The position numbers were made by a program, and so were the translations under genes. A DNA stretch of 64,000 nt from Euglena gracilis (lineage: Eukaryota): positions 49,207,847 to 49,271,846 of the forward strand of contig CP154954.1 of NCBI GenBank assembly GCA_039621445.1. The letters are read 5' to 3'. Positions 3,564 through 42,600 of this stretch are shown piece after piece. Every line of letters begins with the position of its first letter. The first letter of the stretch is position 1. The notes below the pieces were generated by a model. That model had not been told where the DNA came from, made no database searches, and saw only the letters and a program-made list of their open reading frames with translations.

Positions 3564-3984
3564 CCGGGTTCGATATAAGGAGAGGGGGGGTCTGGACCCC
3601 CCCCGGTGGTCCGTCGGTCGGTGGTCCGGACCCCCCCTGCGGGCCAGGAGGGGGGGGGGTGGGGGGGGACACCCCCCCCACCTAAACAGGTGCGCGGTCA
3701 GGGTGACCGAAAATTTTTGACCCCCCAAAACGACCAAAAGTGCCATAGTGGGCACTTTTTGGGCAAAAATTGGCCAAAAATGCAAAAAAATTTCGGCGCA
3801 AAGCGCCGGAGGAAAAAATTGACCCTTTTTGGGGGGGGGGTCCCGGGTACCCCCCGAGGGTCGGTCCGGACCTCCCTTGCAGGTGGGGGGGGGAGGGTCC
3901 GGACCCCCCCTGCGGGCCAGGAGGGGGGGGGGGGGGGGACACCCCCCACCTAAACCATGTACGCCCTCCTTATATCGAACCCTG
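3564..3984. mobile_element. hAT-type MITE family A
   Basis: Same TIR (left end CCGGG) and body; inserted in a G-run (G8 both sides). Confidence 0.88.
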
Positions 3985-6042
3985 GGGGGGGGGGGTCACG
4001 GCCAAAAAACCAGTCAGTCACTCTGAAAAAAACCAGTCAGTCACCCCCCCTGGGGTGGGGTGGGACAGGTGTTAAGCAATGTTCTGGTCTGGACCCCCCT
4101 CAGGGGGAGGGGAGGTCTGACCCCCCCTCCATTAGGGGGAGGGGAGGGTGTACAAAACCAACGCTCACATAACACCCTGGGAGGGGTCGTTGTTCAGTTT
4201 CAAAAAAAAAACCAGTCAGTCATTTTCAAAAGCCAGTTCGAAAGCCAACCACTTCCTACAACCGCCGGCGATGGGTCACTTTGGCCACCCCACCCTCCCG
4301 GGGGGGGGGGGGGGTCTGGAGCCCAAAAAACCCAGTCAAGTCACCCGGGGGGGGGGGGGTCGGACACTGATTACCTGCCCCCCCTGGGCAATTGTCGCCA
4401 GGCTTCTTTTTAAGATCCCGGGGGGGGGGGTCCCCCCACCCACCCAGGGTGGCGCGGGACCCCCCCGGGGGGGGGGGGGGACCCCCCCCAAAATCGGGCC
4501 CGTAAAAGGCAATTCTCAAAAATTTTCGGCGCTTCGCGCCGAAAAGGTATACCCAGCGCCTCCGGCCCGGACCCACCCACCCACCCCCCTCCCCGGGGGG
4601 GGGGGGGTCAGGTGACTTAAAAAGGAGCCTGATTGTCGCGTGACAAATTGGGCAGCACAGAGGAGGGTGACAATTTCCCGGTGACAATTTGGCCGGCACA
4701 GAGGGGGGTGACAATTGCCCGGGGAATTGCCCGGGGGCGTCAATTGCCCTCCTATGCAAGCCACATTTAAACCAAATGACCAAGAACACCATCTGAAACA
4801 CAAATGAATGCAGGAAAAAAATGCAGCTATGGTTGTGATATTGTATGTGAAAGTTCTCAGCACGTTGTAAAGAAATAGAAGATCAATCGAGTTGTGTCAG
4901 TGAAAAGAAAGTTCACAGTGCAATACTGCAAACGGGGGGGGGTGACAAATTGAGTTGTATGGGAATCTCCGGGGGGGACCCCCCTTCCGAAACTAGGGGG
5001 GGTCCCCACCTGTCCCCTCCCCACCTGTCCCGATTCATGGTCATTTTTGGGCCATTTTGCCAAAATTTCATGTTGAGCCTCAAAAAAAGTCCTAAAATAC
5101 ACTCCCGGCGCGAAGCGCCGGAAAATTCTTTGCCCCCGCAGAGGAGGGGGAGGGAGGTGGGGAGGCCCTCTTCCGAAACTGGGGGGGGGGTGTGGGACCC
5201 CCACCACCTTACCCCCCTAGGGGGGGGGGGGTGACCCCCCCCTCACCACCTACCTCATGTCTGCGGAGCTTCCCATCCAACCCTGCTGAAGGGGGTGACA
5301 ATTTCCCGGGTTGACAAATTGGCCAGCACAGCCAGGGGTGACAATTGCCCGGGGGCATCAATTGCCAGGGGGGCATCAATTGCCCCGGGGGGGGGGGGGG
5401 GGGGGGAGTGATTGCACGGTCAGCAGTTAGAACATGTCCTTGAGAGGAAAAATCATCAGAACATCAGAAAGTACTCAATTCTCCAGAAGCCCTTGGGGGA
5501 AGCCCAAGATTGAAGATTGTTTCAGTGGTGCCAAGGAGAGCCCTTCTCCCCATACACATTGCAAACCCAAAGGGGGGAGGCATGGGGGGCAGGAAGGCAG
5601 GAAAGGCTGCCACCCGAGACCGACAAATGCTTCATATGGGGAACAAGGCTCTTAACAACGGCCCAGGTCGCCAGGGTGTTGAGGTCAACTGGTCCGAACC
5701 CATAAGCAGGGTTTGATGTTCACCCAGGAAAATCATGAACAGTCCTTTCAATACTTTACTTTGGAAGGAATGGCGTCACGAAGACGTGAAATGTGGTTCC
5801 ACAAATTCCCCTGCCGAAGCATCAGCCTTCCGGTGTCCCAGGATGTTATTACCTAAGCACATCAGAAAGAAATGCTTCAAAGCGGGGTGGGGGGTGGTCC
5901 TCCAATCAACCATGGGATACCCCTCTCCCCGGGTGTCCAGGGGAACCATTTTGGAGGTATGGAGTCCAAAAAAAAAGGTTCGGCACACAAAGCACAAAAC
6001 ATAGACAAAAAAATCAACAATAGGTGTTAGGGGGTGGAAATA

Positions 6043-7575: not shown

Positions 7576-7796
7576 TCACCAGAGCACTCTCTCCGCCGCC
7601 ACGCAGATCGGGGCGTAGTGGCAGAGCTCGGCAAAGCGGTGGGCCCGGCGGGTGGACCTCCACGCCGGGAGGCACTTCGTGGCCGGGGCGAGGGGCGGGA
7701 GGGCCAGCTCGGCCTCCGGCAGGTTGGTCACGATCATTGCGATGTCGCCCACGCCGATCTCCTGCTCCGGGTCATGGCACACGCCCATGGGGGGTT
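7576..7796 (-). CDS. Probable terminal exon of an unidentified gene (PPMGVCHDPEQEIGVGDIAMIVTNLPEAELALPPLAP...RVLW*)
   Basis: Strong GC3 bias; preceded on the minus strand by CTG-CCAGC|A, a nonconventional 3' intron boundary. Confidence 0.5.
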
Positions 7797-9916
7797 GCTG
7801 GCAGTTCCACTTGGGGCTGTCCCACTTCAGACAAATTCTCGAGGAAATTCGTCCAGGACACCCCCAGTTGTCCAGTTGGAAAGTTTCCAATTGGAAAAAG
7901 GTGCTGGTTACAAAGTGCTGGCTGGACCCCCCCCCCCCGGGTCCCCTGCAGTCGGTGTCCGGGAGTGGGGGTCCAGCCGTTTACGGGCATCCAGTACAGC
8001 CAAAACATGTGCAGCCGGTGGGACCTCACTGGTACCCTGAAAAACTCCAAAACTGTTTTCAAAAACCCCTAAATCCAGCTGGGTGGCAATATTTCAGCCA
8101 AAAATTTGAGGCGAAAACCCCAATGTACCCTCAAGGACATCATTTTCGGCGACTTAGTCCCCTGTTGTGAAAAACTTGGTGCATAATGGTGATTTTTTCG
8201 ACTCAGCCTGGCTGCACTATGTACACCCCGGGAGGGGGATATTTTCGCGGAGTTTATCTGAGAACTGCTGGATATTAAAAAAAATAATAATAATAATCGC
8301 GGTGTGGCTGGATTGCTGGCCATATCCAGAAGTGAAGTTGTTCAAAACAACCATGTTTGAGGCCCATTCAAATCATTGGATACAGAGAAAAATAAGGCAA
8401 CAGGTTTGCCACACCAAAACAGATATACCGAAACAGATGACTATGCAACCCCCAAATCAGACCCACTTGGGATTTTGGGGGAAATGACCCAAAATGGGTT
8501 ATTTTTTTTGAAACGTTCAAAGCAGAACAAAATGTATCGTTCTGCGTCATAAACTGCCCATTTTCAGGTGCATGACCAATTTCATCGTTGATCTTAGGCG
8601 CCGCATCGCTTAAACTTAAGCACTTAAACCTTTTTCTTTATCGATGTGCGCAATTGCGCAAATGGACATTTTTTTTACAAAATCCTTGAACCGCCAACTG
8701 CACCTGGTGAAACAGCAATATGTAAGGTTCACACCTCACGATACAAATTATGAAACACAAAGGTCTCAAACTATCATCCTTACAAATGTATGATACGCCT
8801 GGAGCGACAAATTGGTGGCATTGTCCATGAAACAGGTGGGTTGTGCACCCTGGCGGGGGGGGGGGGGGATGCGCTGGACGGCCCTCGGGAAAAATGCGCA
8901 AAAATGCGCAAAAAAAATGCGCAAAAAATGCGCTGAGTTTGTGACATTCCTAAGGGAAAAAGGACTTAGAAAATTTTCCAACAGCAAACCCAAAATTAAA
9001 CCAAAATCACTAAAAAAGAGCTGAAATGAAGGCATTTTGGCCAAAAAAATGCATCACCAAGGCGTCACTCTCCGTTCACCATAACCAACAATGTGCCATG
9101 GTTGCCCCAAACTTGTGACCAGGGGAGTGGGATTCCCGCCTTGGTTGCGTGTCAATGTGGGGTCTCTGAAACCCCTCGTGTCCTCATCGTCATTGGATGA
9201 GTACCCATACCTCATCACCCAAGGGTTTTCTCTTATTCGATGAGCATGTGATTTGGGTGGAAAATGTACAAAAATGGCAAAATGTGCAAAATTGGGCAAA
9301 AAAAAAAAGCGCAAAAAGTGCGCAAAAATGGAAAATGTGCAAAATTGGGCAAAAAAATGCGCAAAAAAATGGAAAATGTGCAGAAACGGGGGGGAAATGC
9401 GCAAAAAAAAAATGCGCAAAAATACGCATTTTTGAAAAATTGACAAAAATGCGCAAAAAAATGCGCAAAAATGCGGAAAAATGCGCAACGCATTCCCCCC
9501 CCCCCCGCTCTGGTTGTCACGACTGTGGGTTTTGGTGTGTCCGTGCTGCCTGTAGCACGAGAGTCACTCGTGCAAATACAGCCGGCAAGCAGAAGGGGAA
9601 ATCGCCCAGGGAGGGATCTCTCAATTCAGTTGTGGGTGGGGGTGGTTGGGGAAACGGGGAGATGCACACCTGTTTGACGGCGACCAACTTTCCACCATTT
9701 GGACAATGTGACGTGCAGTTATATTAGGCGATGATTGTGGCATAAATAAAACTTTCCAGAACCACTTACACAAAGTGCACATGGCTGGTGTGCGCAAATA
9801 TGTGAATGGTCGATGTGCGATTTGCGCACATCAACCACTTGAAATTTGGAAATATACTCCACAGTTTTCTATATTACCACATGAAAAACAACACCTGCCT
9901 TTTCTTGGCTCTAGAA

Positions 9917-10478
9917 CAGGGGGGAGGGAAAAATGCAACTTGGCCCTTCAAATTATGCAAGTCAAAAAAATGCAAAAAAATGCAAAAAAAATGCAAAAAA
10001 ATGCAAAAAAAATGCAACTTGCAAAAAAACCCTGAGAAAACCCTGAGAAAAGGCTGGAATGTAACAGAGTTGCTGCCAATAATCCATAGACATGTGATAA
10101 TGCCGGTGTATACCTGTCAATGATTCACAAAGAAGACCTCCTGGAAGACAACACTGAGACCCCAAAAACCCCAGGCAACTGCAGAGGGACCAGAGACAAA
10201 ACATGACATTGGCGACCAACTGCAAAAAAGTTTTCCAGGACAAAATATTTTTTGCAAAAAATGCAAAAAAAATGCAAAAAATGCAAAAAAAATGCAAAAA
10301 ATGCAAAGAAAATGCAAAAAAATGCAAACATATGGCGACCAACTACAAAAAAAAATTTCCGGGTCAAAATATTTTATGCAAAAAAATGCAAAGAAATGCA
10401 AAAAAATGCAAATTCCGGAAAAACCCGATTATGCAAAAAAATGCAAATTATGCAAGTTGCATTTTTTCCCTCCCCCTG
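9917..10478. mobile_element. hAT-type MITE family C with (AAAAATGC)n subterminal repeats
   Basis: TIR CAGGGGG(G)AGGGAAAAATGCAACTTG; perfect TSD CTCTAGAA. Confidence 0.92.
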
Positions 10479-11586
10479 CTCTAGAAGAAAAGGTTTGGGC
10501 AAATATTTTGAACGGGTAAACCCCCCCCCTCTTACAACCCCCTTCCACTGAGAAACCCCCCCACTTGTAAACCCCCCCTCAGGCCGACCAACCAAGCCGG
10601 GACTTGCAACCCCCCCCCCCCCCGGGAAGAAAAATGAAAGCCACCGGGGACAATTTTTTTCAGCCACAAACCGCCCAAAAATTGATTTTGGTAAATTTTT
10701 TGAGACCGACCACCATCGAAAATTGCCAATTTGAGGGGTCATTTTGGGGGTTGAACAATTCCGGGACCTATAAACCCCCCTCGGCCAACCAACCAAACCG
10801 GATCCTATTGATCCCGACGGGTTTATAAGTGGGCGGGGTTACCATTTGCAATGTGCGACAAAGAACGGTGGCTTGTAAATGGACTTTTGTTTGACCTCCG
10901 TATTCTGGAGTGCTCTTCATTTTTACAGTTGACGTGCGCACTTGCACACACCAATCATTGTGGACGCAAATCTTTTGAAACTGTGGTGAAAGAATTCTGT
11001 TTTTGGGAACTGGGAATTCATTAGAACCCACCATATGACAGGAGAAAGTTTTGTCTGCTTCATGAGCAGGTGTGTATGTCTTATTTCCAACCCACACGAC
11101 CGATCGTTTTCACGTCCTCGGTTTGAAATTGCCCGTGATTTCTGGACGCTTTTCTTCAAAAATAACGAGGTCCAGAATTTCAAAATTACGCATGTGTAAT
11201 CTTCCAGATGCCTCAGCCAAGAATCATTTGTCCATTTGTACCACAAGGATACCTCATTTTTTTCTCAGACAACATGCAACACACCAGTTTCTTGTGCACA
11301 ATATCCGGGCCAGGCCCATGTGGAAACTGTAGACCACTAGTAAAGGGCCCACCGCCAGCACGTCGCGGCACACGTGCAACAGCACCGTTTGGGCAATGGG
11401 TGGACCTCGAAACCCCCGCCACTTGCCCCTGGTTTGCGTTTTGCAGCAACAGTCACATCAGTTGACGATATTGATTCACTTAAGCATCCACAAGGCCGTC
11501 ATCAGCCCCCACCTGTCACTGGGCCAGAATCAGCCCCAGAAAAAGCCTCGTGTGGAGGAAAAGCGTGTGACAGCTGAAGTTGCACA

Positions 11587-11904
11587 CATGCTTGTGCTTA
11601 CCAACCGGGGGGGGGGGGGAGGGGGGGGGGGTGCTATAGGGTGCCTGCCCCTAGCAGGCACACCCCCCCCGGGGGGGGGGATAGGGGTCCGGGCCGGACC
11701 CAGAAAATTTTCATTGAAAATGGCCTTTTCCGGGCCCCCGGCGCCTTCGGCGCCGGGGTTGGAGGGGGGTGCCTGCTAGGGGCAGGCACCCCCCAAAACC
11801 CCACCCCCCCCCGGGGGGGGGGGGCGGATCGAGTGCTATGGGGTGCCTGCCCCTAGCACCCACCCCCCCCCCGTGGGGTAGGCACCCGACTAAGCACAAG
11901 CCTG
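11587..11904. mobile_element. hAT-type MITE family B
   Basis: TIR CA(T/G)GCTTGTGCTTA; perfect TSD GTTGCACA; internal GGTGCCTGCCCCTAGC repeats. Confidence 0.92.
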
Positions 11905-12885
11905 GTTGCACACCCCAAGGAGCCATTGTAGGTGGTGTTTGGGGTCGTTCTGTCTGAAATTTTACTATTGTGGTCGGTGTGCGCGACACGTCGTCATGGT
12001 GTGCCCATTTCGCACTCCGACGACGTCCATCTTTACGGTCATTACAGTCTGTGAAGGTGTGCAAACGCCGACCACGTGCGCATTTTCGCAAACCGACCAC
12101 ACTTTTTTATTTCGACCTGGTACTTGCATTTGATACATGTGTTTTTTAATGCATTTATGTCTGTTTTCAGAGAAAAGCTGCGTCGTAAAGCCCTTCCAGT
12201 TATTGTTATTTCAAAAGGCTCAATGCAGCGATGCCTGTTCATGTGCCATGATACTTGATTGCACCCCTTTGTACAAAGGTGCCTCAGGTCGGTTTTCGCA
12301 AATGCGCACATATTGACGGTGTGTGCATTTGCGCAAATCGACCTCATATTCCGTAGAGTGGTCGCTGTGTGAAATTGCGCACATCGACATTCTTTCTTGT
12401 CCAAAAGATGGCTGCAATGAATCATTCCAGTGAAATTTGGTTTGGCATCCTAACCTCCCATCCTGGTTCCCTGCGCTCTGGCTGACATCCAAAAACACAG
12501 GTCCGAGGCCGGCAAAAAAAAAAACAAAACAGTGCGTCAAAATCCCCCAAGGGGACCAGCCAGGGCCGCCAACAATCGGTGAGGAGAGCCGTATGCACAA
12601 AATGGGGGGAGGCGGCACCGGAGTTTTGGTGTTTTCTCAGTTTGGGGGGGGCAGGTCTGGGGGTCTTTCATTCCGACGGAAAACAGCAAAAACAAAAACA
12701 CAGAGAGCCGGGGCCAAAAACGAGAAATTCCCTGCATTTTGTCCAATCCTGCTGCCTCTCGCTCTCACCCCTTGCAACACCAGCGTCAAAGTGGCTTTTG
12801 GTCGATGTGCGAAGTTGCTCAAATGGACCAAAAAAAGCTTAAGTGCGAGATGTGCCGCCTAAGTTGATGCACTCACGGCAAACGT

Positions 12886-13570
12886 TCATGCCAGGCTCAC
12901 AGAAGCACCCCACACGCGGTATGTAGCGTTGATTTGCAGGACGATGACCACCCGGCCGTGTTCATCTTGCAGGCACAAACAGGGTTCGATATAAGGAGAG
13001 GAGGGGGGTGGTCCGGACCCCCCCCTGCGGGCCAGGAGGGGGGGGGGACACCCCCCCCACCTAAACAGTGGCGCGGTCAGGGTGAAAATCGCGCCGGGCC
13101 GAAAATTTTTGACCCCCCAAATCGACCAAAAGTGCCATTTTGGGCACTTTTTGCGCAAAAATTGGCCAAAAATGCAAAAAAAATTCGGCGCGAAGCGCCG
13201 GAGGAAAAAATTGATCCTTTTTGGGGGGGTCCCGGGTACCCCCCCAGGGTCGGTCCGGACCCCCCTGGCAGGTGGGGGGGGGGGGGGCCCCCCCCGGGGG
13301 GCCAGGAGGGGGGGGGGGGGGGGGACACCCCCACCTAAACCATGTACGCCCTCCTTATATCGAACCCTGGGCACAAATCGGTACAACTCAGCTCCGGCAT
13401 CCGCAGGATGCGCAGCGCCACACACATGATGCGTCCACTGACAAGGCCCCCATTGGTGCAGGTGACGAAGGCGCGGTCCCCAGGGGCAACCAACCAACAC
13501 CCTCGCCGCACTCCGGTGCATAGCTGCCTCGGGGTCGAATGCTTTCCACTTTGCAAGTCCCTTTGAACAC
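12886..13570 (-). CDS. Coding-like exon(s) interrupted by a MITE (possibly part of the F-box gene)
   Basis: Removing 13372-12975 gives a continuous GC3-rich frame ...QRDLQSGKHSTPRQLCTGVRRGCWLVAPGDRAFVTCTNGGLVSGRIMCVALRILRMPELSCTDLC|LQDEHGRVVIVLQINATYRVWGASVSLA*; no domain recognised. Confidence 0.55.
12980..13369. mobile_element. hAT-type MITE family A
   Basis: TIR CAGGGTTCGATATAAGGAG; perfect TSD GGCACAAA (12972-79 / 13370-77). Confidence 0.92.
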
Positions 13571-13915
13571 TCAGGAAAGAACAGCCTTTGAAAGTAAACA
13601 CCCAGCACTCCAAAGAACTCTTTGTTCAATCACATCACAAAAAAAGAACTGCTGCCAAATTTTGCAAAAAAAAACTGCCAGCCAGGCTTTTGCTCAAGGG
13701 GGTCCACTGTTTAGACATTTTTATAGACACTGGGGGAAAAAAACACCAGCTGGACCCCGCTGCCCTGGGGGAGGGGGGGTTCCGGGTCCCCCCCCCAATG
13801 AAAATCCCTCCGGCGCTGTGCGCCGGGTGGAAAAAAGGTTTTAACACTGCTTTGTGACTGATTCTTTCAAAAAAAACCCAAAAATGACAGTCCGAAAAAA
13901 AATTTTGCTTTGTGC

Positions 13916-14765
13916 GGGGTTTACCACCGGTTCGTGCTAGGAAGCCTGAAATCCGGTTCGTGAGTGTTCGTGATTGTTCGTGATTGTTCGTGATTGTTCG
14001 TGCTTCCAAAAAACCGCCCGGTTTTCCATTTTCCTTGGCAAAAAGTTATTCTTCTTGTGCTTTGGTTTCTTGTGCCTCTTTTAATCAACATATTCAGGTC
14101 AATGGGGAAAGCAAAAGAGGCTTGGAAGATGCACTGCAAAGCAACGAAAAATCAGTGCCAACGTATCATCAAGCAGACTGTGAGATCAGCAATTTTCTGC
14201 CTCTTTGGGGCAGGTTGTTCGTTGGGAACCTGACACCGAAGGACAAAAATACACCTTTTGAAAAACACAAAATACCTCCATATCACGTTTGGGTGCATCC
14301 ATCAATTCACCTAAAAGACCAGGGTTTTCCACAATCTTTGGTTTGCGAAGGAGGTTGTCCTTGCGAGTTGACGATGAAACATGTCGCTTTGCATATGTCT
14401 TCTCGGCCCAGTGCACTGAAACATGGCAAACACTGCACCACATTTCTGAACCTCTCACTTCCATCACTCCACCAAACTGAAAAAGGTGACAAAAAGGGGG
14501 GAAATCAAACAAGATAGATATGACACCTGGGCAGCATGCTTTTGAGGAGTCATTTTGCCACCTCCTTCCATGATCTTTTCTCTTTGGTTAATTGAGCAAC
14601 ACCGTCATTCTCAGAAAAAGACATTTCTGCAAGGGTGACGAAAAAATTCGGTTCGTGATTGTTCGTGATTGTTCGTGATTGTTCGTGATTTTGCCAAAGT
14701 CCCAAGTTTGTGATGGTTCGTGATTGTTCGTGATTGTTCGTGGCACGAACCGGTGAAAAACCCTG
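13916..14765 (-). mobile_element. Internally deleted hAT-type DNA transposon with transposase remnant
   Basis: 8-bp TSD CTTTGTGC (13908-15 / 14766-73); TIR CAGGGTTTTTCACCGGTTCGTGC (left copy degenerate); subterminal (GTTCGTGATT)n arrays at both ends; encodes a zinc-finger remnant. Confidence 0.8.
14150..14571 (-). pseudogene. Truncated hAT transposase N-terminus with CGGBP1-like zinc finger, containing GT-AG introns
   Basis: MEGGGKMTPQKHAAQ | GT-AG intron 14526-14477 | FGGVMEVRGSEMWCSVCHVSVHWAEKTYAKRHVSSSTRKDN...DME | second GT-AG intron ~14275-14230 | VPNEQPAPKRQKIADL. It resembles the CGGBP1 finger (TPxxxxxEFGG...LFCxxC...HLxSxTH) as recalled, not searched. Confidence 0.7.
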
Positions 14766-15049
14766 CTTTGTGCTGGTCAGTTGGAAAAAATTCCTAGCCC
14801 TGCTAGCAGCCACTAGGCCCACTGGGGGGAGGGTGTCCACTTGCCAAATTTGGACTGCCCGCCCCCCCCTTGTTGTACGACCGGGTTCCTGCAACCTGTG
14901 ACCGGGGGGTGGTCATAAATGAGGGGGCGGTCATAGGTAAGGTGGTGTCCAATTTTTCGCAACCTGCAACCTGTGACGGGGGGGGGTGCTCTGGGGTGCC
15001 TGCCCATAGCAGGCACCCCCCCCCCGGTGTTTCCCAGTGCCGACCCAGC

Positions 15050-15343
15050 CATGCTTTTGCTTGCCAACCGGGGGGGGGGGGGGGGTGTGGGTGCTATAGG
15101 GTGCCTGCCCCTAGCAGGCACACCCCCCCCGGGGGGGATAGGGGTCCGGGCCGGACCCAGAAAATTTTCATTGAAAATGGCCTTTTCCGGGCCCCCGGCG
15201 CCGAAGGCGCCGGGGTCGGAGGGGGGTGCCTGCTAGGGGCAGGCACCCCCCAAAACCCTACCCCCCCCCCCCGGGGGGGGTGCCTGCCCCTAGCACCCAC
15301 CCCCCCCCCCCGTGGGGTAGGCACCCGACTAAGCACAAGCCTG
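15050..15343. mobile_element. hAT-type MITE family B
   Basis: Same TIR and body; perfect TSD GACCCAGC. Confidence 0.92.
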
Positions 15344-15429
15344 GACCCAGCCAATTTCCCTTTGAAAATGGCCATTTTCGGGCCCTGGCACCTTCGGCGC
15401 TGGGGGGGGGGTGCTCTAGCACCACCCAC

Positions 15430-15596
15430 CAGGGTTCGATATAAGGACAGGTGGGGGGGGGTGGCCCGGACCCCCCCACCCGGGCAAGGCGGGGGGGGGG
15501 GGGTGGGGGGGACACCCCCCCCCACCTAAACAGGTGTGCGGTCAGGGTGGCCGAATTCGCGCCGGGCCGAAAATTTTTGACCCCCCAAACTTCGAC

Positions 15597-15639
<43 letters not shown>

Positions 15640-15894
15640 AAAAAAAAAAACAAAAAGTGCCATTTTTGGGGCACTTTTTTGTGGCAAAAAATGTGGCCAC
15701 ATGCAAAAAAATTTCGGCGGCAAAGGCGCCGGAGGAAAAATTGAACGCCTTTTTGGGGGGGTCCCCCCGGGAAACCCCCCCGAGGGTCGGTCCGGACCCC
15801 CCTGGCAGGTGGGGGGGGGGTGGTCCGGACCCCTCCATGCGGGCCAGGAGGGGGGGAGCCTAAACCATGTACGCCCTCCTTATATCAAACCCTG
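15430..15894. mobile_element. hAT-type MITE family A
   Basis: Same TIR and body; perfect TSD CCACCCAC; internal poly-A expansion 15598-15650. Confidence 0.92.
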
Positions 15895-16405
15895 CCACCC
15901 ACCCCAAAACACGACCCCCCCCCCAGACAGAACGGGCAGGCCTGGTGGGGGGAGTCGACCACCCCAACCTGGGAGGTGGGGGGGGGGGTCGAACCCCCCC
16001 ACCCACCACAGCATTTTCATGAATTTCTTTTAACAAATCCACCCGGCGCTGAAGGCGCTGGGGAAAACTTTTGGGGGTTGAAAATTGCTGAATTGTGATC
16101 TCCCGGAAATACGGGAGGAGGAGGTGGGGGGGTCCGCCATACAGGGGGTGGGGGGGGTCGACCCCCCCCCCCCCCCCCCGGCTGTTTGGCGATTCCCGTT
16201 TTTGCCCTGTCCGGGGGGGGTCGAAAGTGGTAGAAGTGTACACTTCCTCAAACAGAAGCCTGGATGGGAAGATGATAACAGTGGTGATGATGACGATGAG
16301 ATGGGATTGATGGGTTTGGGAATGGGAGCAAATATATTGTCATTTGCTTCAGGATGGGAACCACAAATCAGTTCCTTGATCCAGAAAAAAAAAACAGCTC
16401 TGCGC

Positions 16406-16507
16406 GAGTCCCCTCTTCCCAAGCACGGCACACGCAGCTGAGCCCACAGACTGCATCCGTTGTCAAAAAGTTCAGCAAATGCTGAAACACATCCGATGGC
16501 AAAGCCA
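16406..16507 (-). CDS. F-box domain exon (ALPSDVFQHLLNFLTTDAVCGLSCVCRAWEEGT)
   Basis: Reverse-strand translation (not in the ORF track) fits the F-box consensus LPxE/DhhxxIhxxLxxxxhxxhSxVCRxW. It is flanked by TTG+5 nt and C|GCG-CAG nonconventional boundaries. Confidence 0.75.
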
Positions 16508-19500
16508 ATGGTCAAGGTAAAGCATTTGCTTCAAACACAAGGGGTTGCATTGGACTGGATATCATCATCTGGCCTTGGGGGGGTTCAAGAATCATTTCTC
16601 CGGGTTGGGTAAACCATGTCCCCCCCATGTAAGACCCCCTTTGGGAGTCAAAATCCTTGGAGGGTTCTTATATGGGGGGGTGGTCGTGGGCAAAGGGAGG
16701 GGGGTCTTTTATTTGTCTTGGGAGGCATGGTAACAGGAAGCAAGACTGGGGCTCATAGCAAAAGCTGTGTTGAGATCCATGGCTGACAGTGCTGCGCGGG
16801 TGCCCAGGCCCTGAAAAGGAAAGCACAATGGGGGTGTACGGGTCGCGGGGGAAATCGCGGTGGGGTCGAAGGGGTGTTTGCGGGGGGAACGTGGCAGTTT
16901 TCACGGGTCACGTGTGACCTGTGTGACCTCACATACAACGTCATATGTGACGTATTTTTGGACCTTTGGGTCCAACAATAGATCTAATTTGGAATTTGCC
17001 ACAAATTTTTGGCAATTTTGATTCCTAATTTGTGTGCCAATTCATAATTTGGGAGCCATTTTTGGCTCCCACTGGGATCCGGAAATCCTGCATGCGTGGG
17101 TCGCGGGGGGTCGCGGGGTGTGGTAGCAGGGGGCGGGGGGTGTCGCAGGGGGGGTCGCGGGGGGTACACCCCCAGTGAAATAAGGAAAGAGAATGGCATA
17201 TCTTCGTGCAAAGGGGTTTATGTGATAGTTGCAATCAGATTCAACTGAGTGAGAGGTGCTAGCTGGCTGGCTGGGTGGGCCAGCTTTGGGAATTACCCTC
17301 ACCCCCCCCCCCCTCAAAGTGGCCGCCCTCCAGGCCCCGTGGGAACCCAAAACGGCCACTCTGGGCGGGCGGGGGGGGGGGGGCAATTTGGGGGGTCAAA
17401 CTCTGGCCTTCGGCGCCAAAAGAAAGCAGCCACTTTGATGGGGGGGTAAACCAAAATTTGCCAAAAGAATTTGGCCACTTTGGGGGGGGGGGTGAGGGAA
17501 GCATCCCCCCCCAAGCTGTTCTCGTCCCCAAGACCCTTGACGGCCAATGGGAATAGCTCAGGGGGGGGGGGTCCAAGGAAAGATGAAAATTCTAGATTGA
17601 GATCTGCATGCCGATATACATGGGCATGCATATACATGGGAATTTTTTGAGAAAACAGCAATGCCCAGGCTGTTATAATTACGATGATTATAAGCTAATA
17701 CCAAAAACCTGGGGGAGATCTTCCCCCCCCCCTTTTTTCTCCCCTGGTTTTCCATTTATGCATATATTATCACAGATTTTTCTGACCATGACCCGATGTC
17801 CCACCACAGCAGCAACAGTTCCACCCCCACTCCCCCTCCCCCGACCCCTCCGACCCCCCCCCAGGCCCCCTCACGCTCTCCCCACCGTCGTCCCCCGAGG
17901 CCCCAGCTACTGGCACCCCCCCCCCGTTCCACAACGAGGACCCCGCCCAGACCACCCAGCTGGCCCAAAAACAAGAAGCATTTTCCCTGGGGGATGGCAT
18001 AATCTGGGCGGTTGGTTTGTTTTTTATGTGTTTGTTTTGGTCTGTTCCCTCTCTGAAGTTCTTCCTGCTGAAGTCCCCCCCAACCCCGACTCCACCTCTC
18101 CCCCCGCCCATCCTGGTCGGACGCCGACCATTCCCTGCCCCCACCCCCGGCTTCCCTTCCCCCCCCCCTACCCCCCCCCCCCCCGCGGGCCCCCAGGGTG
18201 GCTCCCCCCCCCCCCCCGCCAGTCCCAGCATCCCACCCCACCAGTCCCCGCAGCCCGGCCCCCGCCACCCCCACCAGCCAGCCCCCTGCCAGCCCCACCA
18301 GCAGCCAGCACCCCAGCCAGTCCCAGTCCTCCACCCGCCGCCGCGACCAGCTGCTCCCGCACCTCCACTCGTTGGGGCAGTGCGGGGGCTGCGGGGCGCA
18401 GCTGCTGAAGGGGGGCCACAACCGGCAGTTGTTTATTTGCCAGGAGTTGGACCAGTGGGAAAACAAAACAAAACCCTTTGTTTACACCTAGCGTCCGAAA
18501 TGTTGCCCACGGCCAACAAAAGGAGGCTAGGCGCGCCGCTCGGGGGGGGGTCCGGCCCCCCCCGCCCCCCCCCCCCCCGCAGCCCCTGCGCGGCCACCCG
18601 CGCGGCCGATCGCCCCCCCCTGGCCCCCCCCCCACCCCCCACTGTGCCTAGCATAGCCAAGAAAAAAATTTTTGGTGAAAAAATCGCGATTTTTTGAGGT
18701 CCAAAAATGACCAAAAATGACCATTTTCGGACACAAAATGGCAAATTTGGGGGCCGCGCGCTCTGCGCGCGGCCAAAAAAGCACTTTTTGGTCAAAAATG
18801 GCCCAAAAATGGCAAAAAATGACCACTTTTTGGACCCGAAAATCACCGATCTTAGGATGCGTTCCGCCCGCGCGGCCGCCCTCGGACCCCCCCCCCCCAC
18901 CCCCCCCCCTCCCCCCCCGCGCGGCCGCCCGCGGCGCTCCCCCCCCCAGCCCCCCCCTGCTGTGCCTAGCCTCCAAAATATTTGCCCAGCGCCCACAAAA
19001 AATTTGCCCAGAGCTGTCAAAAATTTTTGCACTCCGCTGCCAAAAATATTTGCACTTGCTAAAAAAATGTTTGCCCTCCGTCATTTAATTTTTGCACAAT
19101 GAAAAAAAACCTTTCAGATGCACCGGTGCTTGCAGATGAATTCTCTATATCGAGAACTGTGTCCCAAACGCCGGTTCGGGCGGGAAACCTGTGCCTAGGA
19201 CGCCGGTTCGGGCGGTAGCCCGAACCGGCGTCCTAGGCACAGGTTTCCCGCCCGAACCGGCGTTTGGGACACAGTTTTTGAAACCGTGTATTGGGGGCTC
19301 TGGTTTCACGCCCGAACCGGCGGCCGAGGAATCACGGCCAATTTCGCCCAAAACACCCATGTTTGGGGATGTGCAAAAATGGCAAAATGTGCAAATTTGG
19401 GCAAAAATGCGCAAAAAAAATGCGCAAATATGGAAAATGTGCAAAATTGGGCAAAAAAATGCGCAAAAAATGCGCAAAAAAAATGGAAAATGTGCAGAAA

Positions 19501-32779: not shown

Positions 32780-35700
32780 AATGGGCCAAAAACCACTTTT
32801 TTGACCATATTTCCGTCCAGGCGGTTCGGTCGAATGAATATCAAGACAGGCGTCGGGCCCAGACAAAATAGGTTTTAGAAAAATCGACCGAGACTAACAG
32901 ATTCAGCAGGGGCGCCGCGCGGCTCGCTTCGCTCGCTCGCGCCCGGCGCCCCTGCTGATCTGTCAGTGTCGGTCGATTTTTGTATAGAAATTTTGGCATA
33001 GGCAGGGGGGGGTGGGCTCCGCCCCCCCCCCCGCACCCCCCCCCCTCAAATAACAAAATCCCTTCTATGTTGGCAATATACTTGGAAGTCCTTTTTGTGC
33101 AAATTTTGACTTATATTGAAAATCCAATGGGGAGAGGTGTTCTTTTGCCAAAAGTGGCCCAAAATGGACATTTTGCCCCCAGTTTTTTTGCATATTCACC
33201 CCCGATTGGGGGGGTTCTGGAGCCATTTGGGTGGGTTTTGACTGGTGATGAGGTGATTTGGACAAACGTTTTTTCTCGGGGGGGGGGCTTAAAAGTCGGC
33301 GAGACTGGCCCGAAACTACATTAGAGTGGGTGGTCGGCCGACTACACCCCCCCCCCCCCCGTCTCGCCGACTAGCTGCCGACCAGGCCCAATCGGCCGAC
33401 CAGTTGGGTGGTCGGCCGACCACCCGCTACCCCCCCCCCAGTCTACCGTCTGCCACAATTTGTCACCCCCTTTGGGCTCCTCTGGACCCTAGGTGACAAT
33501 AAGAGGGGGGTGGCAATTGGGGGGGTGGGTTGCCAGTAATCCACCCCCCCCATTTGTTTTTGTTTTTTGGCACACATTCAGCACGCCTGGAAAAAAAATA
33601 CTCAGCGCGCATGTGGTTTCTTTAGGATTACCCCACCCCCTAATTGTCACCTTTTGGGGGGACAAAGGGGGGAGGTGACGGTATGTGAAAATGAGGATTT
33701 GTCACCAGAATTCCCTATCATTGAGTTTTTGACGTCCCCCCCCCCTGCTTCCTTGTTTTCATATCTTGAAAGGTTTGTTGTATTCTAAAGTTTTCCACCC
33801 ACCGAACCTTTCTGCTGCCGTCCAAGTTGCTGTTCGTATAAGACCCATGACAAAAGCTGAACAGCTCTCTTCTCTTCTGAATCCTTGTTGCCAGAAGAAC
33901 TCCTGGTGAAAAACACCTTCTGACTCGTGAGTGTCTATTTGTGGGGGAAGTGCATTTCGAGTTGTGTTGTCTGTCAGTGTTGAGGTTCGCCCCAGACAGG
34001 TGGGTCATGCGTTTCTGGAGCCGTGCTGGGAGTTCCTGTTTTGCTCTGGACCAAAAATCGCTTCAAGGCCAAGCATTGTGGGGGTCTTTTGGGGGGGACC
34101 CCCAGGGCAGAACGGGAATCGACCGAACAGCCAGGGTGGTGGGTGGGGGGGTCGACCCCCCCCCCACCCCCTGCATGGTGGGGGGGTCGACCCCCCCCCA
34201 CCACCTCTTCCCGCATTTCCGGGAGCACCAATTTTTGGACCCGAAAAAAAATTTCCGGCGCCTTTGGCGCCGAGTGTTTTTTTGACCCATTTTGGGACCC
34301 ATATAGGGGGTCCCCCCAAAAACCACCCAAAACCCCATTTTTTCGCACCTTCCAAAAATTCGACATTTTCTCAAAATGTTGATTTTGAGAGGTTTTTGAA
34401 GCGAACAATGCCATTGAAAGTCCAAAAAAGTTCAACGAGAAAAAATGTCAGTAAAATTTGGCTGTGCCAAAATTTCGTCCACTTTTTTTGACCTTGTTTT
34501 TTTCACCCCCCCCCCTCCTAAAAAGTACCAATTTTTAGGACGGAAAATTTTGAGATTTTTTGTGAAAATTTGTGGTTTTCCATCAAAAAATCATGTGTTT
34601 TGGGTTCATTTTTCAAAAAATTTTCAAAATTTTTCTGGCCAAAATCCCCGTTTCCCCGAAATCGGTGAAAATGCTGTGGTGGGTGGGGGGGTCGACCCCC
34701 CCCCACCAGGCCTTCCCATTCTGCCCTGGGGACCCCTCCAAAGAAGCGTCCCTCCTACAGCTGGTGCCCTCTGTTCTTGGAACAGTTTGACAAACTCCAC
34801 AAAGAAACAACAGCTTTTATGAAGTGCTTCAACAGAATTCCCCAACTTTTTGACAGGGTCGTTGGAACAAAACAACATATTGTTTGATAGTTTTGATATA
34901 ATTCACAAAGCATCCTGAGTGCCAAAAACCGACATGTCTAAATTCTTTGTCAGTTTTATTTTTGAAAACATTTCAGAAACGCTGTCCAAAAGTTCCAAAA
35001 ACCTCTTCTCTGGAGTTTCATTCAAAATCCCAATCCGTTTCAACAACAAGGGCATTAGCTGTAAGAAGTTGTTCAAATGGTGCAGGTCTTCCCTGCCCCC
35101 CTCCGAAGGGTTTTTTTTTTGGCTTGTGCCACCCCCCACATTTTTGGGTTCTGCACCCCCACTTGGCATAATAGGGGGGGGGATGACCCGCGCGAAATAA
35201 GTGGGGATGGCTTATGTCGTGGGGATTGAACAACCAGTGGTCATTTTCCACCCAGAAATCACCAGTCTCCTCAATTACGCTGCAATTCTCCAGTTGGAAG
35301 TTTCAGGGGTTCCTTGTAGAGGAAAAGCTGCCCTGATGGTGGTATTGCAGAAGGTGCAATTGTTGCAGATGGCCATTTCGGTGTCAAAACAACTCGAGTT
35401 GGGGAACCCCCGAAAGAGTTTGTCTACAAGCAAGTCTCCATTTCTTTTGGAAAAAAATTCTTTTGTCCAATGTGACACCGACACACAGGGGAGGTCGACC
35501 CCCCGACCTGCCGGGGGGAGGGGTCTGGGACCCCCTACTCCCCCCCCCCAGGGCCCAGGGGGTGGGCAAGGTATAAGTGACCATCCCCCCGGCTGAGAGG
35601 GGATTCGACACCCCCCCTCAACTAAATTTTTTCTTCCCCGGCGCTCCGTATGTTTTTATCATCATTTTGTTGAAAAAAACTCCTGAAAACGCAATTTTGG

Positions 35701-39600: not shown

Positions 39601-42600
39601 GGAAAGCCCATCGGTTCATATTGAGTTTGGTGAAATGTGTGAACAAAAATATGCAAAAATCCGCTTACCCCCCCCCCTCAAAGAGCACCGTCCAAAGTGG
39701 CCAAAAAATATTGGCAAATTTGGGTTTACCCCCCCTCAAACTTTTTCCTTCGGCACCAAAAGCGCCAAGGCCAAAATTGCCCCAAGAAAGCAATTTTTTT
39801 TTTACCGACTGGTGCCCCCGGGGGGGGGGGGTGAGTTCGTGGGGACCCAGAAATTTTTCATTGAAAATGGCCTTTTCCGGGCCCCCGGCACCTTCGGCAC
39901 CAGGGTCGAAGGGGGTGCCTGCCCAAAAACCCGACCCCCCTGGGGGGGGGGGGTTCGGATGGGTGCTCTTGGGTGCCTGGCACCCACCCCCCCGTGGGGT
40001 AGGCCCCAACGGAAAAAAGCCTGCCCCCCACAAAGTGTCCCCCCCCCAGCGTGGCCATTTTGGGTCCCACGGTGCCTCGAGGGTAGCCACTTTGGGGGTG
40101 AGGGCACATGCGCACTTTTCTTGAGACTTTTTTGAGACTTGGAAAACTTTCAGGAAGGCCTGGACCCTTGGACATTTCTTCAAACAGTGACTAAAAAAGA
40201 AATGGAAAAAGCGGCCCAAAGTGGCAAAAAATGGCTTGAAATGACCTCAACTTGCCAAAAAAAAAAATAAAAAAAAGTTGGCCCAATTGGCAAAGAAGGT
40301 CCACAGCGCGGAGGGGGTTCCCCCCAACCACCCCCCCCCTGGGGGGGGGGTCGGGGGGGGGGGCTGGTCCCGGAGGACCAGCAGCCCGACACCCCCCTGG
40401 CCCTGGGGGGTAAGGTGGGGGGGTATCTGCTGGGGTTCGATATGAGGAGGGTGTACGGGGTTTAGGTGGGGTGCCCTCCTGGGACCAGAGGAGGGGTCCG
40501 GACCGACCCCAGGGGCGTGCCCGGGACCCCCCCAAAAGGTCAATTTTTTCCTTCTGGCGCTTCGCACCGTAAAATTTTTTGGCCTTTCTGACAAAAAATA
40601 CTTGCCCAGAATGTGTCCAAAATGGCACATTTGCAATTTTGGGGGTCAAAAATCTCGGCCCAGCGCTTTATGCCAGACTGAAATCGGTCACCCAGACTGT
40701 GCCACAATTAAGTCGGGACCCCCCCCCTGCTGGATCGGAGGGGGATCCGACCCACCGTCCCCTCCCTCCATGGCAAGTTCCAAAAATAGCTAATTTTTTT
40801 CTTCCAGTGCTGCGCGCCAATAAATAAACAAGAAATGCCATTTTCCCTTCACTTTTGAGAATATTCCTGTTTTGCTTTGGTGTTTTTCTGCATTAAAAGG
40901 TTTTGAAAACCGTTCAAAAATGAGCATCTTTGGATTTATTTTCAAAGAGGAATCAGGCTTCGGCCTGGTATCTGGCTGGCCCTTTGCCAGTCCAACAAAA
41001 ATTTTCCTGGCCCCCTTCAGTTGGAGGGGGGGTGCGACCGACCCACCCACCCCCCTCTGTGTTGGGAGGGGTGGTCAGGACCCCCCTCAAGGCTTCCCAC
41101 ACATCCCTGCCCATCCTGCTGGGTGGGGGGGGACGACCCCCCCCCCTCACCAGGCTTTCCCGGGCTTCCGGGGGGTGCCCATTTAAAGTCAATTTTTTTC
41201 TTCGGCACCGAATAAATTTTCCCTTCGGTGCTGTAGTGGGTGGGTAGAGGTCAACCCCCCCCACCAGGCCTTCCGTACGGCCCTGGCCGGCTCCCCCCCG
41301 TGGATGAGGGGCTCGGGGGGTGTGGGCTATTGTGCTGGACCCGGGTTGTACCCCCCCCCCTCCCCCTTGACCACTGACCACCCCGTATTTGCCAACCCCC
41401 CCCCCCAATCGGGGGTTGCGTACAACCCGCGATTGGCGATGACCTCACAAAGCAGGGTTTTTTGGGGCATCGGGTCATACGACCCCCTGGTCGGGGAATT
41501 GCAGGTCAGGGGCTTTGTTGCTCCCCCCCCCTAGTTTTTCACATTGGGTGTTCTTCTGTGAGCCCCAGTTCAGCAAGCGTCTCTGAGGAAAAGGGGTGCT
41601 TGCCAGCAAGCCCAGAATTCTACAGGAGCCAGCCCAAATTTCAAGCTCTGCCCAGCAGCCACTGGGTCGCAGGGGGCAAGGGGGGGGGTCGAATTACTGG
41701 TGATTTGACCAGGTCGCCATACCATGACCACATCATTGTCGCTATACCATGACCAATGGTCTCCAGCAACCATCAAAAATCCCATGGCCAATTTTTCTGT
41801 TCTGCCCCAAAACCCCCCCCCCCCCCCGGGATGAACGGGAATAAAAACAGGAATTGCTGCAACCGTATTTGCCCCCCCCCCCCCCAACCTGCAGTCAAAC
41901 CCTGGAGGAGGGGTTCCCTGGCCTGATTCCCCGGTTCGTCAGTGCCATGATGGGGATGGCCCAGGACAAGCTTCAGGCAGACTCAACCCTCTCTGTGAAG
42001 AGCATGAACCTCCTTGGCATTTTTAATTTTTTGTTTTTTTCAAAAAGTTGAATTTTGAATTAAATAAATTAATTTTAAAACCACAAGATTAGTATTCAGT
42101 ATTCCACACCAGTGCCATGGAGGTTTATGGCCCGCTCACGATGGAGTACATTGAGATCTATAACGAAAAGATTCGTGATTTGCTTGAAAGAAGGAAACCA
42201 GGACAAGTTGAGTTAAGTGAGCTGTTCAAGAGACACCACAAGCTTATTTTTTCTAGTTTTTTTGTTAAATTTCTTATTTAATACTGTTAAAAAATAAGCT
42301 GCTGAAATTATATACATATGTGTATTTTTTAAAAATAATATTTTCTTGTTGACAGCTTCTGGTCATTGCCGTGTCAGCCACATCATCACGCCCTGTTTTG
42401 TTTGAAGCGCATGGACCAGACTTATTTTCAGGAAGCCCCCCCGGGGGTGTGGCAGGGGGGTGGGGTGAGGCATTTTCGACCCTCCACCAGGGGTGGGTCA
42501 CCGAAGGCACCAGGGCCCGAAAATGTCCATTATCAAGGGGGGAAATTGATTGGGTCGGCCTAGGCCAAGACCCAAAGGACCCCCCAGGGTATTTGCTATG

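Follow-up and report, generated by a model that had tools for sequence, protein, structure and literature searches.

A MITE in a coding exon of an F-box gene of Euglena gracilis, very probably removed from the mRNA as a nonconventional intron

The 64,000-nucleotide stretch of the Euglena gracilis genome analyzed here (GenBank assembly GCA_039621445.1, contig CP154954.1, positions 49,207,847 to 49,271,846, forward strand; hereafter the window, numbered from its first base) carries on its minus strand a gene for an F-box protein, one coding exon of which is interrupted by a MITE (miniature inverted-repeat transposable element). The element is present in the DNA between two coding pieces, belongs to a dispersed family, and is absent from mature RNA at the junction predicted by the published code of euglenid nonconventional introns. 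A first-pass annotation, made from the letters alone, had left the choice between a recent intron gain and a gene-killing insertion. The intron half of this proposal is borne out, since the mature RNA lacks the element at the exact junction, while the gene-killing half is not. We therefore consider it very likely that the element is a MITE insertion into the F-box exon that is removed as a nonconventional intron. The interrupted exon and the parts of the element are listed below; identities refer to the Euglena longa protein P0001 and depths to the RNA runs X21 and X22, both introduced further on.

12980-13369: MITE body, 390 bp, non-coding; subterminal parts rich in G/C homopolymers, centre A/T-rich.
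12980-12998, plus strand: left terminal inverted repeat, CAGGGTTCGATATAAGGAG; 19/19 positions complementary to 13351-13369.
13351-13369, minus strand: right terminal inverted repeat, 19 nt, 100% complementary to the left repeat.
12972-12979: target-site duplication, copy 1, GGCACAAA on the plus and TTTGTGCC on the minus strand; 8/8 match.
13370-13377: target-site duplication, copy 2, 8/8 identical to copy 1.
12975-13372, minus strand: 398-nt nonconventional intron in the placement given by the published code, GCC-CAG...CTG-TTTGT, then exon base G.
13373-13513, minus strand: upstream half of the interrupted exon, ...VRRGCWLVAPGDRAF...SCTDLC; depth 55-82 (X21 and X22, mates summed); 90% identity.
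12911-12974, minus strand: downstream half of the interrupted exon, LQDEHGRVVIVLQINATYRV; depth 48-65 per bin; 91% identity.

Read on the minus strand, the locus runs ...CCGA-TTTGTGCC-CAGGGTTCGATATAAGGAG...CTCCTTATATCGAACCCTG-TTTGTGCC-TGCAAG..., and the perfect terminal repeat and perfect duplication noticed in the first pass are confirmed at 19 of 19 and 8 of 8 positions. With a length below 1 kb, no coding capacity, and terminal inverted repeats, the element has the properties of a MITE. The 398-nt intron consists of the element and one copy of the duplication. Its border can slide along the 8-bp repeat with the mRNA unchanged, and its placement is based on RNA depth, the loose-end junction, the code of PMC12501133, and the terminal stem. 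Scans of 12500-13900 for tRNAs and tandem repeats yielded nothing, and Rfam identified no family (0) over the whole window; a reading of the motif GGTTCGA in the terminal repeat as part of a tRNA-like gene was rejected given the blank tRNA scan. An open reading frame (ORF) of 247 amino acids that spans the MITE (12886-13629) was likewise rejected: The element has no RNA cover as an exon would, and the upstream frame of this ORF stops just past the junction after removal of the element.

Raw reads of three RNA-seq runs from two studies with the same species label (X21, X22, and X24) were aligned over 12000-14400. With both mate directions summed, X21 depth amounts to about 65 on 12891-12971 and to about 82 and 63 on 13377-13538, and is about 0.5-3 on the element body at 12972-13214 and 0 on 13539-13700. 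The profile of X22 is similar, and X24 is shallower. The bins at 13215-13376 are 26-37 deep in X21, where reads break in G/C homopolymers and leave loose ends of low agreement at 13291 and 13305-13308. At position 13362, the base of the other family copies is found in 8 of 10 reads of X21 and in 5 of 5 of X22, which indicates that reads in this part derive mostly from elsewhere and that at most two X21 reads could be unspliced RNA of this locus. Six X22 reads start matching at 13370 and are preceded by a 17-mer unique to 12955-12971. These reads contain one copy of the duplication and no element, and thus represent the exact empty-site junction. The junction that the first-pass annotation had proposed to seek in RNA-seq is therefore found, at a transcribed locus and with next to no retention of the element.

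The outer borders of the exon are defined by sharp loose ends at 12911 (67 reads in X21 and 51 in X22, agreement 0.99-1.0, unique continuation at 7748-7777) and at 13513 (74 reads in X21, 61 in X22, and 11 in X24, agreement 1.0, unique continuation at 16406-16435). Together with the depth profile, they delineate a single exon at 12911-13513 that the element splits in two and whose ends connect to exons at distances of 5.1 kb and 2.9 kb. Within this exon, RNA and window show no listed base differences. Among the joints listed for the RNA runs, none is back-joined, as the end-to-end joint of a circular excised intron would be. In the size-fractionated library X24, depth on 12972-13376 (about 1-8) resembles that on the exon (about 1.5-8), which is not the case in the two standard libraries; the depth on the element could stem from excised intron RNA or from transcripts of other copies.

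The exon is flanked by two further coding exons.

16406-16511, minus strand: F-box exon, 82% identical to P0001; homology from 16502.
7576-7777, minus strand: last coding exon, stop TGA at 7576-7578; third-codon-position GC content (GC3) 0.93; identical to the C-terminal part of the transcript product P0002 (see below).

When the pieces of the spliced RNA are joined by their coordinates, one of six frames is open, with 170 codons ending at the TGA at 7576-7578. GC3 of this frame is 0.77 overall and 0.57, 0.72, 0.71, and 0.93 by piece; the flanking introns have a GC content of 0.48-0.53. As the first pass had stated, a retained element stops the upstream frame at 13335 (ORF 13335..13625), and removal of the 398 nt fuses the two frames. 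Two details of that description need correction: The trailing W of the fused peptide is intronic, coding ending with ...ATYRV and the next intron starting from 12910, and the label "GC3-rich" applies to the pieces flanking the element only at 0.72 and 0.71, the last exon reaching 0.93.

Conservation of the fused frame is seen in two proteins. The 47-amino-acid piece adjoining the element matches P0001 at 89% identity; EukProt assigns P0001 to E. longa, and its accession prefix is used for this species in the relevant part of 10.1101/573709. By tblastn, P0001 is collinear with all four exon pieces (82, 90, 91, and 65% identity) and runs contiguously over the insertion site (...SCTDLCLQDE...). 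A full HMMER search with P0001 retrieved three proteins, one of them P0002, listed in EukProt as a transcript product of E. gracilis. P0002 agrees with the spliced frame at 106 of 106 positions (frame residues 65-170) and spans both the element junction (P0002 residues 18/19) and the next junction (P0002 residues 39/40), thereby providing independent transcript evidence for the joined form and also pointing to E. gracilis as the species of the window. The homology of the fused frame, which the annotation had made a touchstone of its proposal, is thus established by the collinear E. longa ortholog as well as by E. gracilis P0002. A word-index protein search with the last exon gave no match, which reflects its limit of sensitivity, P0002 being found later by the full HMMER search.

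The upstream end of the gene is defined less completely. The F-box exon (16407-16511, minus strand) matches PF12937 (F-box-like) with 26.6 bits (cut-off 24.3) and PF00646 (F-box) with 26.5 bits (cut-off 20.5), and RNA reads join it to exon 13373-13513, unlike in P0002. Between an in-frame TGA at 16512-16514 and the first residue shared with E. longa there are just 3-4 codons, which places the 5' border of this exon within about 10 nt; this interval has neither an AG nor an acceptor of the CTG type. The gene start was sought by tblastn of P0001 residues 1-52 against the window, which returned nothing, and by reading 16480-17400, which gave no resolution. A protein search with the F-box exon returned the E. 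longa protein only; an E. gracilis entry that includes the N-terminal part was not among the results. A plus-strand transcript was ruled out by the minus-strand F-box frame and by the 3/5 asymmetry of the upstream intron described below.

The borders of the 398-nt intron agree with the nonconventional splicing code. The knock-in experiments in E. gracilis described in PMC12501133 show a need for exactly 3 nt before CAG and for CTG followed by 5 nt (6 being tolerated), a purine at the exon start and pairing beside the motifs being also required; according to the same work, introns designed entirely from these rules undergo splicing just as natural nonconventional introns do. At the present locus, GCC precedes CAG as the C-D-G motif (minus strand, 13372-13367), and the 3' motif (C-H'-G plus 5-6 nt) is formed by CTG and the five nucleotides TTTGT ending at 12975. 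The first base of the downstream exon is a purine, G at 12974 of the minus strand, and pairing is provided by the perfect 19-nt repeat, whose end duplex amounts to -42.3 kcal/mol. In folds of the entire 398-nt intron, the minimum free energy and the centroid structure both close the termini (z = -6.0). GT-AG borders do not occur at any of the 9 slide placements along the 8-bp repeat. The intron is also absent from mRNA, as judged from the depth profile, the six junction reads, and P0002, with RNA and DNA coming from different samples. From this fit to the published code, we infer that the element is removed at the RNA level through the nonconventional pathway.

The two spacers, 3 and 5 nt, add up to 8, the length of the duplication; excision therefore removes the element together with one duplication copy and restores the sequence before insertion. 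The opposite strand obeys the same arithmetic (AAA-CAG...CTG-GGCAC, then A), from which it follows that an insertion would qualify in either orientation, provided that the duplication has a purine at position 6. In the mechanism we propose, a non-autonomous hAT-like MITE would have landed in the coding exon of the F-box gene on the minus strand. Its terminal repeats would pair in the pre-mRNA to form a stem of about 21 bp, and the nonconventional machinery would cut 3 nt upstream of CAG and 5 nt downstream of CTG. The frame would be restored, and the insertion would act as an intron from the moment of landing.

The element is part of a family with further full copies in the window.

3564-3984: family copy, 421 bp; G runs on both sides, fitting an 8-bp GGGGGGGG duplication.
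15430-15894: family copy, 465 bp; perfect 8-bp duplication CCACCCAC; within the upstream intron of the F-box gene.

The 19-mer of the terminal repeat occurs eight times in the window with up to 3 mismatches and 0 times in 100 shuffles. Both related copies pointed out in the first pass are real, with 95.5% (3564-3984) and 93.5% (15430-15894) identity to the exonic copy over aligned bases and many indels; when gaps are counted, blastn identity is 87% and about 78-81%, respectively. They are non-coding, as had been said, but the copy at 15430-15894 sits in the upstream intron of the same gene. Within this copy, at 15600-15650, lies a poly-A expansion about 50 nt long that is missing from the other two. 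Each of the three full copies has its own 8-bp duplication (GGCACAAA, CCACCCAC, and the G run), and the flanks differ between copies. Further family fragments were detected by blastn at 1904-2016, 2565-2606, and 40433-40666. In DNA run X2, words of the element reach a depth of 1.2-1.6 million, about 10^4 times that of the flanks; this value is not a copy number but a sign of a very abundant family. A metagenome scan with the 19-mer gave two lone matches that lack a partner repeat and were taken as chance.

The duplication signature extends beyond this family. A scan of the whole window for inverted-repeat pairs of the CAG...CTG type, spaced by 40-3000 bp, identified 88 pairs, 7 of which are flanked by an 8-bp repeat with at most one mismatch (6 of the 7 perfect); as controls, the reversed sequence had such a repeat at 0 of its 97 pairs, and 30 shuffles had none. 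The seven duplication-flanked elements have at least five different terminal sequences, every one starting with CAGG. This combination of at least five terminal sequences with one duplication length argues for several MITE families with a common transposition signature in the window. Apart from the family described above, five MITE-like elements of 233-626 bp, located at 4399-4631, 34103-34728, 44869-45391, 49615-50101, and 61670-61924, have CAGG termini of differing sequence and 8-bp duplications, four of them perfect and one with a single mismatch. No second exonic case was found in the window, as removal of the copy at 3564-3984 or of the other elements with 8-bp duplications fuses only low-complexity frames.

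An 8-bp target-site duplication combined with a CAG-type terminus (YARNG-type) is a hallmark of hAT transposons. Judged by these hallmarks, CAGGG...CCCTG termini and an 8-bp duplication, the MITE probably belongs to the hAT superfamily. With hAT MITEs it shares the 8-bp duplication, short terminal inverted repeats that start from CAG, a small non-coding body, and a high copy number. It differs in that the window yielded neither an autonomous hAT partner nor a transposase, Pfam searches of 10 of the 16 ORFs of at least 220 amino acids giving no match.

The neighboring introns of the gene provide a comparison.

13514-16405, minus strand: upstream intron, 2892 nt; starts GCG-CAG, ends ATG-CACCG, exon base G next; RNA-supported, nonconventional.
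7778-12910, minus strand: downstream intron, 5133 nt; 7-nt direct repeat GCGTGTG at both junctions; RNA-supported.

The 3/5 spacing also fits the upstream intron, with one imperfect motif base and on the minus strand only. Its positions equivalent to the duplication match at 4 of 8, and its stem is imperfect; it has the appearance of an intron of the same type as the MITE intron but of greater age. The nested family copy 15430-15894 lies within it. The downstream intron has neither GT-AG borders nor the CAG/CTG code at any slide position and is a nonconventional intron outside the published signature.

A number of points weigh against the removal of a young hAT-like insertion from the pre-mRNA of this locus. 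The main caveat concerns the samples, which differ between the RNA runs, the transcriptome of P0002, the DNA run, and the assembly; the RNA could in principle come from a MITE-free allele or strain. The 398-nt joint itself is not among the joints listed for the RNA runs, and the junction therefore depends on the six loose-end X22 reads, the depth profile, and P0002; among the RNA reads, none was identified that comes with certainty from unspliced pre-mRNA of the locus, and the libraries look unstranded, with equal mate directions. P0002, whose first residue is an internal Met a short way upstream of the MITE site, is devoid of the F-box part, which may be due to a retained upstream intron or a truncated contig. 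The 5' exon and the start codon, corresponding to the N-terminal ~50 amino acids in E. longa, were not found in the window. The blank transposase search in those 10 of 16 ORFs leaves the hAT label to the hallmarks, and the family copies are about 4.5-6.5% apart with many indels, so that the family is not extremely young.

The last point bears on the age of the intron. The element could be an old, fixed MITE-derived nonconventional intron whose perfect ends are held by splicing selection, which we regard as unlikely, though to be taken seriously. As pairing beside CAG and CTG is needed for splicing, the perfect terminal repeat gives no date, the duplication contributes only 8 informative bases, the copies in the window differ by 4.5-6.5% plus indels, and neither an orthologous nor an allelic empty site was seen in DNA (window and run X2). 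On the other hand, the 3-nt and 5-nt spacers, which are constrained in length, still match the exon copies at 8 of 8 positions, whereas the neighboring nonconventional intron is degraded to 4 of 8 with an imperfect stem. Moreover, the family divergence of about 5% appears small compared to the 9-35% amino-acid divergence from E. longa in the gene, which suggests a gain after the species split. We thus infer an evolutionarily recent gain. The terms "young" and "recently mobile" used in the first-pass annotation are plausible only, the perfect duplication comprising just 8 bases and the perfect terminal repeat perhaps being kept by splicing selection. A "newborn" intron is likewise plausible but undated, in view of the intact 8/8 spacers, ends cleaner than those of the neighboring intron, and about 5% family divergence.

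The difference in samples would matter most in the case of an insertion polymorphism, in which the genome carries an unspliced, gene-disrupting MITE and the RNA and the transcript originate from an empty-site strain, allele, or paralog. The lack of an unambiguous unspliced read from the locus would agree with this explanation, as would the strain-specific nonconventional introns within a Euglena species documented in the relevant passage of PMC4770533. However, the element is present in two DNA sources, the window and run X2, the only DNA run used, whose raw reads were aligned over 12000-14400. Two X2 contigs, 12838-13000 (depth 112.6) and 13348-13941 (depth 131.4), reach from the unique flanks into the element at depths that match those of the flanks (120-138), that is, at full single-copy depth, although each has only 21-22 nt within the element, below the 31-nt bridging criterion. 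Contig 13348-13941 starts 22 nt inside the element and continues unbroken over the junction. As contigs end at branch points, an empty allele in run X2 is unlikely. The joined form, in turn, appears in three RNA runs of two studies and in an independent transcriptome, no base differences between RNA and window are listed in the exon, and the element has all items of a code whose synthetic versions splice normally in E. gracilis. Taken together, we judge a polymorphism to be highly improbable. An intron that arose without a transposon, by double-strand-break repair or another process, and merely resembles a MITE in its repeats is scarcely credible: Although the 8-nt direct repeats at a recent Euglena agilis gapC intron are interpreted in that way in the corresponding passage of PMC4770533, break repair does not yield dispersed copies with terminal inverted repeats, and here the 64 kb contain at least three copies of a sequence of about 400 bp, each flanked by an 8-bp duplication of its own, in addition to fragments and to X2 words about 10,000-fold deeper than the flanks (not a copy number).

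Removal of the MITE as a nonconventional intron places the locus among known systems. It shares with the euglenid nonconventional introns (Milanowski et al, 2014, 2016; Nomura et al, 2025, PMC12501133) CAG at +4 to +6, CTG at -8 to -6, and the 3/5-nt spacers, and further the purine at the exon start, the terminal stem, the lack of GT-AG, direct repeats at the junctions, and removal from the mRNA. In contrast to these, the intron described here can be recognized as belonging to a MITE family that is dispersed, multi-copy, and flanked by intact 8-bp duplications. In E. agilis, nonconventional introns account for 71.8% of all introns according to PMC12501133. The origin of such introns in Euglena is still described as unclear, the MITE idea dating from 2013-2014. 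In the main-text passages covered here, a MITE origin figures as a hypothesis only (PMC3935182, PMC4770533, PMC6221363, PMC11170887, PMC11282704, PMC12501133, and PMC12621601). In these passages, no concrete MITE family acting as an intron is named, and the 3 + 5 spacers are not linked to an 8-bp duplication. The terms "8-bp", "hAT", and "duplication" in this sense are absent from PMC12501133 and from the review PMC11282704, and the main text of the E. gracilis genome paper (PMC11252322) contains neither "MITE" nor "hAT" nor "intron". A prior description of such an element may exist elsewhere.

Intron 4 of gapC in E. agilis strain ACOI 323 offers a close parallel in being nonconventional and strain-specific and in having 8-nt direct repeats at its junctions, as given in the passage of PMC4770533 that reports it. 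That passage interprets the intron as a product of break repair and mentions no repeated family; the present locus suggests that the 8-nt repeats might be read as a transposon duplication instead.

A functional analogy exists to introners. Huff et al (2016), cited in PMC11170887, reportedly described these as MITE-derived spliceosomal introns. In both systems, a non-autonomous DNA transposon with terminal inverted repeats and a duplication becomes an intron on insertion, and the duplication helps to define the borders such that excision restores the frame, introners being known from Micromonas, Aureococcus, dinoflagellates, and others (review PMC11282704). Introners use GT-AG-type sites and the spliceosome, whereas the element here lacks GT-AG and has its borders measured from the CAG/CTG stem. 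Further, introners are defined by many near-identical introns in unrelated genes, whereas here one exonic copy is found in 64 kb.

The locus supplies an actual element for the MITE hypothesis: a dispersed family, a copy in a conserved coding exon, and an mRNA that lacks the element at the predicted borders. The equality of 3 + 5 with the duplication length would offer a simple reason for the 3-nt/5-nt spacer rule, and the duplication model would explain why most nonconventional introns are "slidable". Whether euglenid nonconventional introns in general are hAT-like MITE insertions, their code being the RNA-level equivalent of footprint-free excision (3 + 5 = 8), is in our estimate evenly balanced. 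Although only one locus is described, its value lies in making a decade-old hypothesis directly testable genome-wide. If the generalization is true, every such insertion into a transcribed exon would be an intron from birth, whatever its orientation, given a purine at position 6 of the duplication, and the MITE family would, like its sibling families, represent still-active "nonconventional introners".

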